From the NCBI RefSeq assembly GCF_051903065.1, contig NZ_CP178438.1: DNA of 64,000 nucleotides. The stretch is one strand, 5' to 3'. Below, in pieces: positions 7,368 to 32,863 of this stretch. Positions within the stretch are counted from its first letter, which is position 1. Each line of letters starts with the position of its first letter. Below the pieces are notes generated by a model, which was not told the origin of the DNA, ran no database searches, and saw only the letters and a list, made by a program, of their open reading frames with translations. This DNA is from Escherichia coli (GTDB taxonomy: Bacteria; Pseudomonadota; Gammaproteobacteria; Enterobacterales; Enterobacteriaceae). Made by a program: the position numbers and the translations under genes.

Positions 7368-7943
7368 CTACGGCAGTGCTGGCCATTCAATATCCTGTGC
7401 AGTTGACGTATCAACACGGTTCAGCAATACCCGATACTTTTTCCATGCTTCCAGCAACGAGATTTCTTCCTCCGTTGCAATTTCCAGATCTGCAGCATCC
7501 TGAAGCGGCGCAATATGCTCACTGGCTACCTGCATCAGGTTGTTTTTTGTTTCTTCCGCCTCCCGGATCCGGAACAGTTTTTCTGCTTCCGTATCCTTCA
7601 CCCAGGCTGTGCCGTTCCACTTCTGAAACTCCCCTTCCGGCGATAACCAGGTAACATTTTCCGGTAACGGACCGAGTTCAGAAATAAATAACGCGTCGCC
7701 GGAAGCCACGTCATAGACGGTTTTTCCCCGATGATCTTCAACGAGATGCCACGATGCCTCATCACTGTTGAAAACAGCCACGAAGCCTGCCGGAATATCT
7801 GGCGGTGCAATATCGGTACTGTTTGCTGGCAGACCTGTATGAGGCGGAATATATGCGTCACCTTCACCAATAAATTCATTAGTTCCGGCCAGCAGATTAT
7901 AAATTTTTATGGTCTGTGGTTGTTCACTCATTCTGAATGCCAT
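7368..7943 (-). CDS. tfaQ: tail fibre assembly protein
   Basis: 191-aa ORF immediately downstream of tail fibre gene; Tfa-family organisation. Confidence 0.85.
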
Positions 7944-16809: not shown

Positions 16810-17080
16810 GATGTTACCGTAGTATGTGAGTATCCATCGAATAGACACCAAGCAAAAAAGCTCCCGAAGGAGCCTTCATTTTCACTTTTTTAAATCCAAC
16901 GACAGACGGCTGGCATTTAAGTATTGTGAAATATTATCAAATGTAATCATCATTGATTTACAAAAGATACATTTTGCCCCGAAAGGATTCATGTCAGAAA
17001 CATCAAAAGATGATGTTCTATACTGGGAACCATGACAACACGGGCATCTAAAGTGAATATGGTTTGTAATATTGTCTACC

Positions 17081-17293
17081 TCAAAGCGCCACTACATGAA
17101 CAGCGGCAGGACCTTTAGGTCCGTTCTCAATACCAAATTCAACTTCCTGATTCTCAGTTAATGTTTTGAAATCGTTGCTCTGAATTGCTGAGAAATGGAC
17201 AAACACATCTTTGCTGCCATCTTTCGGCGTGATGAAACCAAAACCTTTTTCAGGGTTAAACCATTTCACTAAACCAGTCATTTTGTTAGACAT
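17081..17293 (-). CDS. cspI: cold shock protein CspI (CspA family)
   Basis: 70-aa [26 protein letters not shown]... cold-shock domain RNP motifs. Confidence 0.9.
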
Positions 17294-18683: not shown

Positions 18684-18991
18684 AGATATTTATGATGAGG
18701 ACGCTCGTGCTTATTGGCAGGATTTTCAATCTTAAAGGAGTACTGATGCTGCAGATAAGACTCAACTTTTTCTGACAATTTTTCTGCTACTTCCAGGAAG
18801 ACTTGCCGGACGCTCCTTCTGGCTGCTGCCTCATAAAACTCCAGCGCAGCTCCTTCAACACGGTCCATGGCGACATCCAGGTCAAAAATTTCACCGTCAA
18901 AGCGTTCTTTGTCCTGTAAGGCTACAGTTACCGTAACTTTATTCTCAAAATTACGGACTCCTTTCACAACCAGTTCATAGTCTTGAGTCAT
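18680..18991 (-). CDS. ydfR: prophage protein YdfR
   Basis: 103-aa ORF between holin and lysozyme genes. Confidence 0.7.
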
Positions 18992-18995
18992 TGGA

Positions 18996-19211
18996 TTACT
19001 CTCCTCTCGCAGCCTTACGCCTGTCTTCTTTAATCTTGAAATAAAGATTTGTCAGATACGTCAGCAGGCAAAAAACCAGGCTACCCAGCACACCGATTGC
19101 AGCCCACTGTGACGGAGTTACTTTATCGAGTAACTGCAATGCCCAGAAACCAGCATTACCCGCCGATGTGCCATAGGCAACACCTGTTGTTAACTTATCC
19201 ATTGATTTCAT
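18996..19211 (-). CDS. essQ: holin (S-like)
   Basis: ORF 18996-19286; likely start [28 protein letters not shown]... with TM segment. Confidence 0.75.
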
Positions 19212-19429
19212 ATCCTCACCCCGATGTACACGGATGGTGCAATATGTTTGAAAAGATCGGAGTCTACGGGGTAGTTTTGACAGCACACGTTGTTCTCAAC
19301 GGCGCTAAAAAACATACACATTAAAAATGTGGGTAATTATTTTGAAAGAAAATCATATATAAAATAATAATACGAGAAATGTTTTCATATTTAGTGTACT
19401 GTATACGGCCATTTATACAGGAAATGCCT

Positions 19430-19600
19430 ATGTCAGAACGTAAAGACTCAAAATCACGCCGTAATTATCTCGTTAAATGTTCCTGCCCAAACTGCACCCA
19501 AGAGTCAGAACACAGTTTTTCAAGAGTACAAAAAGGTGCCCTTTTGATCTGCCCTCATTGCAACAAAGTATTCCAGACAAATCTTAAAGCTGTAGCCTGA
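19430..19600 (+). CDS. small zinc-ribbon protein (56 aa, CxxC...CxxC); possibly the K-12 small protein YnfU
   Basis: ATG at 19430 with AGGA upstream; MSERKDSKSRRNYLVKCSCPNCTQESEHSFSRVQKGALLICPHCNKVFQTNLKAVA. Confidence 0.55.
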   Translation: MSERKDSKSRRNYLVKCSCPNCTQESEHSFSRVQKGALLICPHCNKVFQTNLKAVA

Positions 19601-19963
19601 TTGATTTTATTAGTAACAAGTATTTTTTATATTTTAATAATATATTTAAAGCAGATAATAAAAAACCCGCCTGAGCGGGTTTGAGATTGTGGTGCTTTTT
19701 GTGGGAGTCATCCACTTACGCACTTTGTTTTGCGATGCCAGCAGTTAGCTTCTGCTGTGAAACTATTCATGCAGCAAACCTGCACTTCACCACAATGGTT
19801 AGCATACTTTTCCTGATTAAGATTTTGCCAAATATGCTGGCCATTGTTTCATGTATTGGACCTCCTTACTTTTTATTAAAGAGATCCAATATTCACTACT
19901 CTGTCCGTATCTCTACTCAGGCATCAGCCTTCTTCGTTATCGTATACAGACGAGCGATGAATT

Positions 19964-20179
19964 TTAATCAGTAATGATGACATTTACTGCTGCAGGACCT
20001 TTAGCACCACTCTCTATAGAGAAGGTAACCTTTTGACCTTCAAATAAGGTTCGATAATTATCATTCTGAATCGCAGAAAAATGCACAAACACATCTTTAC
20101 TACCATCAACAGGAGAAATAAAGCCGAAACCTTTATCAGCGTTAAACCATTTTACTAAACCAGTCATTTTATTTGACAT
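19964..20179 (-). CDS. cspB: cold shock protein CspB
   Basis: 71-aa [26 protein letters not shown]... Confidence 0.9.
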
Positions 20180-20489
20180 TCTACATTCCTTAACTTGAGC
20201 CTTTCGGCATAAATGGTTTGCATAACAGAAACGACTTCGTACTTAATTGGAGAGACTCAAAGAAGGAATAAGTGAATAACACCTGAAATGAGAACTGCTT
20301 TAGTAAACTACTTCGTATATCGTCTGTTCTTCAAACCGACGCAGTCATTAACTCATAGTTGAACATATGAAGCAATGTTTATTTTAGACATCCAGCCACC
20401 TTCAATCCTATCAAAAAAGTAGTTTTCTCCAGGAACGTGTGTATGGTGCACCAGGTTATCAGTATTAAGGAGTTTTTCTGTCCCCTAAA

Positions 20490-20690
20490 ATGACAGGAAT
20501 TGTCAAAAACTTTGACGGCAAAAGCGGCAAGGGTCTTATCACCCCATCCGATGGTCGTATCGATGTCCAGCTTCATGTTTCAGCGCTCAATCTCCGCGAT
20601 GCAGAAGAAATTACCACCGGATTACGCGTGGAATTTTACCGGATAAATGGTCTGCGTGGCCCTTCAGCTGCCAATGTTTACCTTTCATGA
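20490..20690 (+). CDS. cspF: cold shock protein CspF (start may lie slightly upstream at a non-ATG codon)
   Basis: 66-aa [39 protein letters not shown]... Confidence 0.8.
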
Positions 20691-20744
20691 GCTATATTAA
20701 AGCTTTAATTTCAGGCCCCATCGGATCACACATGGAGAGTTTTT

Positions 20745-20834
20745 ATGAATAACCCCGTCTGTCTTGATGACTGGTTGATTGGCTTTAAAATCTTATGCTG
20801 TACTTTGGCCGTAATAGCTCTGCTAATAATATAA
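20745..20834 (+). CDS. possible tiny hydrophobic protein (29 aa)
   Basis: GGAGAG 6 nt upstream of ATG; [29 protein letters not shown]. Confidence 0.3.
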
Positions 20835-20983
20835 TAAGCAGACTCATTGTGTTTAGGGACATTGTACTGGAAGAAAACATTTTAAACATCAGGCAAATAA
20901 CCAAGTCACCAGCTAAATAATAAGTTAACAGACATGAGTCCCGGGATGAGATTCAACATTACCATTGCCCCATTTAAAGCACA

Positions 20984-21015
20984 AAACCCGCTCATCAGCG
21001 GGTTTTCTACTTTTT
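20984..21015. terminator. bidirectional hairpin terminator between cspF and quuQ
   Basis: AAAACCCGCTCATCAGCGGGTTTT stem-loop flanked by T/A runs on both strands. Confidence 0.6.
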
Positions 21016-21111
21016 CTTAACGTCGGGTATACAAAGCCCATCGTTGAAAAAATTTTATCCATATTTTTTGAAAAATGCAAACATCATGTCGCCATCTTCA
21101 GCAAAAATCAT

Positions 21112-21864
21112 TTATCTCGTCACCTTCCTCAATTGCGCTTCCGCGTATGCTTCTTCCTGCCAGCACTTTGTTACCAGTTTACCAATGACGTCCGCATACC
21201 CCTTATACCACTGATAATCGGTCAGGTCTGGTACCAGCTTCTGGACATGACGTCGTGCCAGCGTGGTCGGTAAACGACTAAACCGGTTTCCATTACAACG
21301 CCCACAAATCTTATATACCGGTACGCCATGAAACCGGGTTCTTTTTTCATCCAGAACAATCCCTTTACCCTTACACCCTCTGCACGCTGTGCTGGCTTCG
21401 CCCTTACCATGGCAATGCTGACATAGTTCCTTCACCCATTCTTCCTTGATTACAGATTCCCCGCGTCTGTAGTGTTTCACCACTTCGCGCAATACATTAT
21501 AAAATCCCGTACCTGAACAATGCTCACAGCGAGCCTTACTTGCCGCAGACCTGGAGTAATCAGCAAAGGCAAAACTCACGAGGTAAGGAATAATCTGTAA
21601 CCGGATTTCTTCACTCAATTTGTTCAATGTCGGGTTATCCAGTGCCATCGCGTAATTTAGCAGGCCTTCAATCGCAAACTGAGGGTCCTGAACACCAACT
21701 TTTGCCAGAAATAAGGCCAACCCAAGTGGTGCTTTCGACTGCACCATCCCCTGCGCTGCCATTACATCCGTAATTGTTAAACAACCGGTGCCTGTCGCTG
21801 GAGCGTCATCGCTCAATTTTGGAGATTTTGGGGAGTAATATTTTGGTAAGGCTTCAAGGTTCAT
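21112..21864 (-). CDS. quuQ: lambdoid late-gene antiterminator Q-like
   Basis: ORF 21112-21894; Cys-rich zinc-binding motifs (CxxC); upstream of lysis cassette. Confidence 0.8.
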   Translation of the reverse strand: MNLEALPKYYSPKSPKLSDDAPATGTGCLTITDVMAAQGMVQSKAPLGLALFLAKVGVQDPQFAIEGLLNYAMALDNPTLNKLSEEIRLQIIPYLVSFAFADYSRSAASKARCEHCSGTGFYNVLREVVKHYRRGESVIKEEWVKELCQHCHGKGEASTACRGCKGKGIVLDEKRTRFHGVPVYKICGRCNGNRFSRLPTTLARRHVQKLVPDLTDYQWYKGYADVIGKLVTKCWQEEAYAEAQLRKVTR

Positions 21865-27110: not shown

Positions 27111-27444
27111 GAAAAATCCCCCAGAGAATTGTCTGGGGACATTTTAGAATGGTTCAAAGGGGACATTACAGCTTGGTGTTAACAATAGCCTGCTTCTCCG
27201 TGCCTTTCGGCACGTAAGAGGCTAACCTACATGTGTCTAGCATGAAATTGGCCTCAGATTAATGTTAAGCGTCTTGCAGGACGCGTAATGTTAACTGGGG
27301 CTTTTCTCTATCTGCCGTTGGTGTCCATGCCCGAGGCAGATAGCCTCAAGCACCCGCAGTCATTCTACTTAACTAAGATTTCCCCGCAAACCGTTTTTGT
27401 CCAGCACAGTAAATATCCAACTAAACCAATGGAGTTCGCTGTAT

Positions 27445-32805: not shown

Positions 32806-32863
32806 TTTCTGGTGACGTTTGGCGGTATCAGTTTTACTCCGTGACTGCTCTGCCGCCCTTTTT
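32806..32863 (+). ncRNA. dicF: DicF small regulatory RNA (ftsZ-targeting)
   Basis: TTTCTGGTGACGTTTGGCGGTATCAGTTTTACTCCGTGACTGCTCTGCCGCCCTTTTT matches remembered DicF with intrinsic terminator; ends approximate. Confidence 0.8.

Follow-up and report, generated by a model that had tools for sequence, protein, structure and literature searches.

Family-model matches, conservation and gene neighborhood together indicate that a 56-codon open reading frame (ORF) in the Escherichia coli window analyzed here, a stretch of 64,000 nucleotides, is ynfU, a real and conserved gene of a Qin-type lambdoid prophage, and that it belongs to a cassette together with cspF, cspB and a structured RNA. The gene is already catalogued in RefSeq, in EcoCyc-style annotation, in Pfam and in NCBIfam, and its identification is not new; the new observations made here are the linkage of ynfU to csp genes, with the cassette in which this linkage is embodied, and the structured RNA. 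The features of the gene and its two protein-coding cassette partners are the following (positions are those of the window, residues those of YnfU).

19430-19600, plus strand: ynfU coding sequence, 171 nt, 56 codons and a stop (ATG at 19430, TGA at 19598-19600)
19418-19424, plus strand: ynfU ribosome-binding site CAGGAAA, read from the sequence
19484-19486, 19493-19495, 19550-19552 and 19559-19561, plus strand: codons of the inferred zinc ligands C19, C22, C41 and C44, respectively
Residues 26-29: near-invariant SEHS strand
Residues 14-18, 25-29, 38-40 and 47-49 (strands) and 30-35 (helix): secondary structure predicted by AlphaFold2
19355-19429, plus strand: conserved upstream block of about 75 nt, kept across 10 aligned loci
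19342-19371, plus strand: candidate sigma-70 promoter, TTGAAA-18-AATAAT, a consensus match only
19964-20179, minus strand: cspB, the cassette partner that converges on ynfU
20490-20690, plus strand: cspF, the cassette partner that diverges from cspB

The preliminary description of this DNA had placed a 56-aa ORF with a plausible ribosome-binding site between the holin gene and cspB and had proposed YnfU as its possible identity. All of this is borne out: the ATG-to-TGA frame on the plus strand is flanked by essQ (18996-19211, minus strand) and cspB, an AGGA Shine-Dalgarno (SD) sequence stands at 19419-19422 with a gap of 7 nt to the ATG, and the product, MSERKDSKSRRNYLVKCSCPNCTQESEHSFSRVQKGALLICPHCNKVFQTNLKAVA, is identical to K-12 b4776 at 55 of 56 residues, is encoded at the same locus and passes the cut-offs of both YnfU family models (Pfam PF23499 'YnfU', 107.7 bits against a cut-off of 27, profile positions 1-49 of 49 covered; NCBIfam NF038384 'YnfU family zinc-binding protein', 79.8 bits against a cut-off of 36, positions 1-51 of 52 covered). 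In K-12 MG1655, ynfU (b4776, YP_010051186.1; 1640805-1640975) lies inside the cryptic prophage Qin, where the gene order is rzpQ, rrrQ, ydfR, essQ, ynfU, cspB, cspF, ynfS, ydfT(Q). The two copies are alike in the essQ-cspB locus, the start codon, the ribosome-binding region and the terminator, and are unlike in a single coding base (GAC for AAC, giving Asp6 in the window where K-12 has Asn6), in one base of the spacer after the ribosome-binding site and in a few bases of the flanks. The window thus derives from an E. coli strain other than K-12 that carries a Qin-like prophage. Of 5426 complete E. coli genomes, 1622 contain a 761-nt stretch around ynfU, and the coding sequence is annotated in all 25 E. 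coli records listed, as either 'putative zinc-binding protein YnfU' or 'YnfU family zinc-binding protein'. The remark that such a gene is easy to miss in annotation was correct before 2019 and is so no longer, the NCBI pipeline now naming the protein via NF038384. A zinc-ribbon HMM search, which the same description had recommended, gives a divided answer: the YnfU family models score above their cut-offs, whereas none of the generic zinc-ribbon Pfam models reaches its threshold, the best being that of the PhnA/YjdM ribbon (PF08274; 22.4 bits against 30.8, E=1.3e-4). A plain zinc-ribbon search would therefore not settle the identity.

The suggested comparison with small-protein catalogues from ribosome profiling was likewise positive. 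YnfU is present in that of Weaver et al. (2019), who detected it in K-12 by ribosome profiling with stalled initiation complexes (bioRxiv 10.1101/511675), and a chromosomal SPA tag confirmed the protein, at the highest level among the newly identified small proteins (bioRxiv 10.1101/511675). Moreover, ynfU was independently recovered as a coding gene by PIRT-Seq in 2025 (PMC12350097). On this literature, all of which concerns the K-12 orthologue, YnfU is translated. Later publications refer to it in terms of 'possible metal binding' or of co-occurrence with other Qin and Rac genes, and the literature searched contained no functional study of the protein (phenotype, partner, metal content or cold induction). 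A 2026 paper on silver nanoparticles that names ynfU in its abstract was set aside, its content being only a low-frequency polymorphism in the ynfU/cspB spacer.

Length alone does not place this ORF beyond chance, because 57 ORFs of at least 25 aa are listed within the 4 kb around it; that ynfU is a real gene follows from homology, the invariant Cys pairs and purifying selection. A search of 5.8 billion proteins returned 49 matches, most of the named ones from Enterobacteriaceae, and the hosts include E. coli, Klebsiella, Enterobacter, Kosakonia, Salmonella, Lelliottia, Kluyvera, Franconibacter, Superficieibacter and Citrobacter. The family is small, since HMMER over 1.84 billion cluster representatives gave only 44 YnfU clusters at E<=0.001. 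In the close set, P20, C22, S26-E27-H28-S29-F30, K35, P42 and C44 are invariant and C17, C19 and C41 nearly so; inclusion of distant members (30-42% identity) leaves C19, P20, C22, L39, C41 and C44 invariant, and S26, H28 and S29 keep a conservation of 90% or more where the alignment extends to about 30% identity. The C-terminal residues vary among the homologues. Loss of the Cys pairs in homologous regions had been named beforehand as the observation that would speak against the gene; instead, C19, C22, C41 and C44 are invariant down to about 30% identity. Because these four persist even in distant members, whereas C17, conserved in close enterobacterial homologues, is lost in distant ones, the zinc ligands are most readily assigned to the two CPxC pairs C19/C22 and C41/C44, that is, to the knuckles C19-P-N-C22 and C41-P-H-C44, which are about 18 residues apart with SEHS between them.

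At the nucleotide level, the median pN over 27 distinct ynfU coding sequences is 0.175 against a pS of 0.80, and dN/dS is about 0.12 where computable (synonymous sites are saturated across the clades compared), which indicates purifying selection. The notion that ynfU is translated yet functionless, a neutral ORF in a conserved prophage region, could appeal to the cryptic status of Qin and to the essQ-cspB 'intergenic locus' having been taken for a neutral landing pad when promoter libraries were integrated into the genome of MG1655 (bioRxiv 10.1101/2020.01.04.894907). The selection on the coding sequence effectively refutes it, ligands intact to about 30% identity and a well-expressed protein also stand against it, and we regard a functionless ynfU as improbable in the extreme.

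The 56-aa start is the choice of both RefSeq and Weaver et al. An alternative in-frame ATG at 19379 would yield a 73-aa ORF overlapping ynfU, and the N-terminal extension so gained shows no protein-level conservation among the homologues. The SD block CAGGA(A/G)A is retained in most of the 10 aligned ynfU loci, the exceptions being phage PHB10, with CTGGAGA, and a Klebsiella sequence displaced by an alignment gap. Within the conserved upstream block, an almost invariant GTAT..GT motif lies about 35 nt before the ATG. This block is probably a promoter or operator, a reading that we prefer since a conserved leader fold is unsupported: a regulatory RNA structure in the 5' leader was considered and rejected (RNAalifold gives 0 pairs across the 10 loci; z=-0.3 against shuffled sequences), and the E. 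coli leader has a 7-bp hairpin, CTGTATA/TATACAG, which abuts the SD sequence and is not conserved. The candidate sigma-70 promoter of ynfU overlaps a divergent minus-strand TTTATA-16-AATAAT, which Shimada et al. assigned to essQ, and promoter-like matches in the ynfU region are no more numerous than in shuffled sequences. A sigma-70 holoenzyme SELEX peak has been reported within the essQ-cspB spacer (PMC3946193). Peaks of the sigma-32 and sigma-E holoenzymes have also been reported there, and no corresponding conserved motif was recognized by eye for these two.

With respect to structure, YnfU is a basic protein of 6.4 kDa (computed pI 9.4, net charge about +6). A first AlphaFold2 model reached a pLDDT of 62, and a fold search with it was uninformative, the top match being a PhnA-type ribbon; with a broader alignment, the core reaches a pLDDT of 82-87 and comprises four strands and a short helix, and both termini are disordered, including a Lys/Arg-rich N-terminal tail of residues 1-13. 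YnfU is thus predicted to consist of a disordered basic tail and a single, putatively zinc-binding C4 ribbon with two CPxC knuckles around SEHS. A Foldseek search of this model against the PDB gave no match at E<=0.001. The top neighbors are all small zinc ribbons, namely archaeal-ribosome-bound proteins (9o17 chain AZ, 9e71, 9fhl chain C and others), yeast Tim15 and Haloferax HVO_2753 (probability 0.75-0.96, TM-score 0.42-0.50, rmsd 2.3-3.2 A, E-values only 0.07-0.25), and the sequence profile of YnfU picks an overlapping set from the PDB (Tim15, E=0.013; L44e, E=0.03; a Methanosarcina acetivorans ribosome zinc finger, E=0.2; PA0128, E=0.5). All of these matches lie above E=0.01 and are weak, zinc ribbons being a generic fold, and the structures matched include protein binders (Tim15, ZitP and Kti11) as well as RNA binders.

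Three groups of known ribbons merit comparison. The archaeal-ribosome ribbons and HVO_2753 share with YnfU the size, the basic character and a single C4 ribbon (TM about 0.45), yet their sequence similarity to it is not significant (E=0.2-2.4) and they belong to another domain of life; unlike the ribosome-bound ribbons, YnfU is not known to associate with ribosomes. The N-terminal ribbon of PhnA/YjdM (Pseudomonas aeruginosa PA0128, PDB 2AKL) was reported as a moderate threading match of YnfU (bioRxiv 10.1101/511675) and supplies the best generic Pfam match, yet the C-terminal domain of PhnA is absent in YnfU and PhnA is not among the top 50 matches listed for the better model. Finally, the DNL-type zinc finger of Tim15/Zim17/Hep1 (PF05180), an escort of mitochondrial Hsp70, has a similar fold and shares with YnfU the core C-x2-C...S-x-H...KG...I-x-CPxC, and Tim15 is both the best PDB profile match and third in the fold search, with a probability of 0.92. 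On these grounds, YnfU could be a protein-binding adaptor, for example an escort or regulator of a chaperone or of a large protein in the manner of Tim15/Zim17/Hep1 and Hsp70, a role that would suit both a Kosakonia homologue encoded beside an HSP20 gene and the expectation of Weaver et al. that most small proteins bind larger ones (bioRxiv 10.1101/511675). We nevertheless hold the adaptor role to be doubtful: at 13.4 bits, the match to PF05180 falls short of the cut-off of 27, YnfU lacks the D-N-L motif, is half as large and varies at its C-terminus, and the sampled neighborhoods contain no recurrent chaperone gene, the recurrent neighbor being a cold-shock-domain gene.

The same conserved residues bear on the proposal that YnfU mainly handles metal, by buffering or delivering zinc. 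The four invariant Cys residues, C17 in the close homologues and an invariant or near-invariant His28 are compatible with such a role, as is the literature label, which goes only as far as 'possible metal-binding'. However, a single structural site in 56 aa is typical of a fold-stabilizing ribbon and not of a buffer, distant homologues lack C17, and znu, zur and zinT are absent from every sampled neighborhood, all of which makes metal handling very unlikely as the main function.

The adjacency of ynfU to csp genes is far beyond chance. By estimate, about nine genes of E. coli, roughly 0.2% of the total, belong to the csp group; by comparison, a csp gene adjoins ynfU in 8 of the 14 sampled contexts, in four relative orientations, these contexts having been gathered by exact-protein look-ups and two pattern scans of viral contigs and being phylogenetically non-independent, so that no P-value is given. 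An identical ynfU stands beside csp in E. coli Qin and in the isolated temperate phages HannyBb, Tritos, 2H10 and PhiR63_1. Two Superficieibacter prophages, with a YnfU of 73% identity, have the order holin, ynfU, cspB, cspF, Q, and phage PHB10 and its relatives carry ynfU, cspB and cspF near the integrase and umuDC, away from the lysis genes. On a Lelliottia chromosome, ynaE lies upstream of ynfU and csp is convergent; on a Klebsiella chromosome, csp is 3' of ynfU on the same strand; in Salmonella, csp is divergent; and the gene of P0063, a homologue of about 40% identity, diverges from a csp-ymcF-like operon. The other 6 contexts, with no adjacent csp, are those of Enterobacter, Kosakonia (where the neighbor is the HSP20 gene), Franconibacter, a Klebsiella phage (where it is a holin) and two distant homologues. 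The full cassette, in the order cspF (diverging), cspB, structured RNA of about 160 nt and convergent ynfU, is found in E. coli, Superficieibacter and several groups of viral contigs. The Rfam model of the cspA thermoregulator spans an entire mRNA; in the window, its match runs over 19917-20340.

Some features of these loci are recorded here for their own sake. The HannyBb annotation (PP925841.1) lacks cspB, and the Rfam cspA model places it at L011 4019-4411; between ynfU and Q of the same phage (L011 3800-6850), about 20 tiny 'hypothetical' ORFs have been deposited. Superficieibacter prophages have a homologue of the STnc100 sRNA (RF02076) between holin and ynfU, and PHB10 has one near its cassette (L017 4740-4869 and L013 2320-2521, both minus strand); the window itself has no STnc100 match.

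This distribution also bears on whether YnfU serves the phage, in lysis timing, late transcription or superinfection. Such a role might be read from the placement of ynfU between antiterminator Q and holin, antisense to the late operon, from its position directly upstream of the holin gene, on the opposite strand, in Qin, the Superficieibacter prophages and the Klebsiella phage, and from the identical gene in HannyBb, Tritos, 2H10 and PhiR63_1. Equally constrained homologues occur, however, in non-phage chromosomal contexts (Enterobacter, Klebsiella, Lelliottia, Franconibacter and others), the PHB10 cassette is near integrase and umuDC and not near lysis genes, no PADLOC defence model was matched, and the PHROGs matches are weak and all to families of unknown function. 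A phage-serving role is therefore, in our judgment, quite unlikely.

The remaining member of the cassette lies in the 363-nt gap between ynfU and cspB, whose elements are the following.

About 19686-19842, minus strand: conserved structured RNA 3' of cspB, about 160 nt, with covariation; it belongs to the cassette and not to ynfU
19842-19797, minus strand: 5' hairpin of this RNA
19796-19788 pairing with 19694-19686, minus strand: its closing helix, which encloses three supported hairpins
19785-19769, 19757-19739 and 19715-19701, minus strand: its inner hairpins
19663-19682, strand not fixed: GC-rich terminator hairpin between the convergent ynfU and cspB units

Sequence conservation extends over a block at about 19686-19850 in E. 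coli, Superficieibacter, Lelliottia and PHB10, and phage-plasmids of E. coli share this block, there placed after a 'cspG' gene and without a ynfU in the vicinity. We consider it likely that this block represents a genuine structured-RNA family that is absent from Rfam. Two pattern scans of viral contigs brought the total to 130 loci with 37 distinct element sequences, situated 100-165 nt 3' of cspB-type genes in prophages, phages, phage-plasmids and one chromosome. The minimum free energy of the minus strand is -61.9 kcal/mol (z=-4.0 against shuffled sequences). In an alignment of 21 sequences, a five-helix model has 93.3% of cells paired, a covariation score of 0.236 and changes on both sides in 13 of 32 pairs (6 of 9 in the closing helix), as against 23-58% paired, at most 5 double-change pairs and a score of at most 0.086 in slid controls; these figures are to be read with the structure derived from the same sequences and with search patterns that fix one loop and one junction. 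RNAalifold pairs the inner region in a partly different way.

The strand of the element is not decided by G-U pairs (pairing is 93.3% for the minus and 91.7% for the plus strand), and both strands fold well (z=-4.0 and z=-3.3, respectively). We assign it to the minus strand because each of the 100 loci with sufficient flank has cspB upstream on that strand, because 15 of these loci have no ynfU, and because the T-run after the hairpin at 19663-19682 is strong for the minus strand (TTTTTTATTAT) but weak for the plus strand (TTTGAGATT). Among the same 100 loci, a convergent ynfU is present in 85 and also cspF in 80, in a sample that is biased through having been gathered with patterns from the RNA element itself. 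Given the 15 loci with cspB and without ynfU, the RNA element does not need YnfU.

Other identities for the block were considered and rejected: a small protein gene (the translations contain stops and share no common start), a degraded copy of the region downstream of cspI (on comparison) and a tRNA or tRNA-like gene (no ARAGORN match). A search of window positions 18900-21200 with the Rfam 15 covariance models at E<=1 gave nothing above noise for the element, and five homologous loci likewise gave nothing at an Rfam gathering score; the terminator alone produced sub-threshold matches to isrK (17.9 bits against 50) and Trp_leader (23.8 bits against 41). The literature searched for an RNA 3' of cspB contained no description of it and dealt only with the cspB 5' UTR. 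An 11-codon ORF, MKQWPAYLAKS (19817-19852, minus strand), overlaps the 5' hairpin, with a near-perfect SD sequence, TAAGGAGGT, 7 nt upstream; its SD sequence and ATG occur in the E. coli clade only, and the K-12 annotation does not include it. Other catalogued small features of the window are the IS009 RNA (7402-7600, minus strand), the sok antitoxin RNA beside hokD (27184-27355, minus strand), the DicF sRNA (32807-32858, plus strand) and the 29-codon ynfS ORF after cspF (20745-20834, plus strand).

A parallel to the ynfU-csp linkage is offered by the YmcF/YnfQ-type proteins (PF23641), which are encoded just 3' of cspG and cspI. Like YnfU, they are small, have two Cys pairs (RCPCC...CIFC) and stand beside a cspA-family gene. 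Unlike ynfU, which runs toward cspB from a promoter region of its own, their genes lie on the same strand as the csp gene, just downstream of it. Homology between YnfU and YnfQ/YmcF is not supported: an hhalign comparison with YnfQ gave E=0.11 and a probability of 0.5%, and PF23641 is not among the 25 Pfam matches listed at E<=10. In the window, ynfQ (16882-17070, minus strand) is directly 3' of cspI (17081-17293, minus strand) and is followed by ynfR (16814-16879, minus strand). With YnfQ, to which NCBI gives the name 'cold shock small protein YmcF', the prophage encodes a second putative zinc ribbon linked to a csp gene. The small ORF ynfR adjoining Qin cspI is strongly cold-induced (PMC6001520). 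The YmcF name and the induction of ynfR show that small genes beside the Qin csp genes can be cold-regulated.

As for the function of YnfU, we tentatively propose binding to RNA or the ribosome and joint action with the Csp RNA chaperones, a reading that we hold as possible and whose mechanism is a guess. The basic tail and the zinc ribbon would contact RNA or the ribosome, YnfU would work together with the Csp proteins, most plausibly at low temperature, and the gene might represent a 'moron', a phage-carried function of benefit to the host. A more ambitious version of this proposal, which we deem unlikely as a whole, is that ynfU, cspB, cspF and the RNA of about 160 nt form one mobile 'cold-shock cassette' exchanged as a unit among lambdoid phages, phage-plasmids and enterobacterial chromosomes, with YnfU as an RNA- or ribosome-binding ribbon that would tune Csp-dependent expression, possibly via the cspB 3' RNA on which its own transcript converges.

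The present observations have implications for both the protein and its surroundings. The essQ-cspB spacer (19212-19963) is not empty, containing both ynfU and a structured RNA, which calls for caution in its use as a landing pad. The RNA after cspB lacks annotation and may represent a new family, in a genome that has been studied intensively. Furthermore, YnfU is among the best-expressed of the recently found small proteins of E. coli, and the csp linkage provides a lead to its function, pointing to cold shift as the condition and to Csp proteins, RNA and the ribosome as candidate partners.
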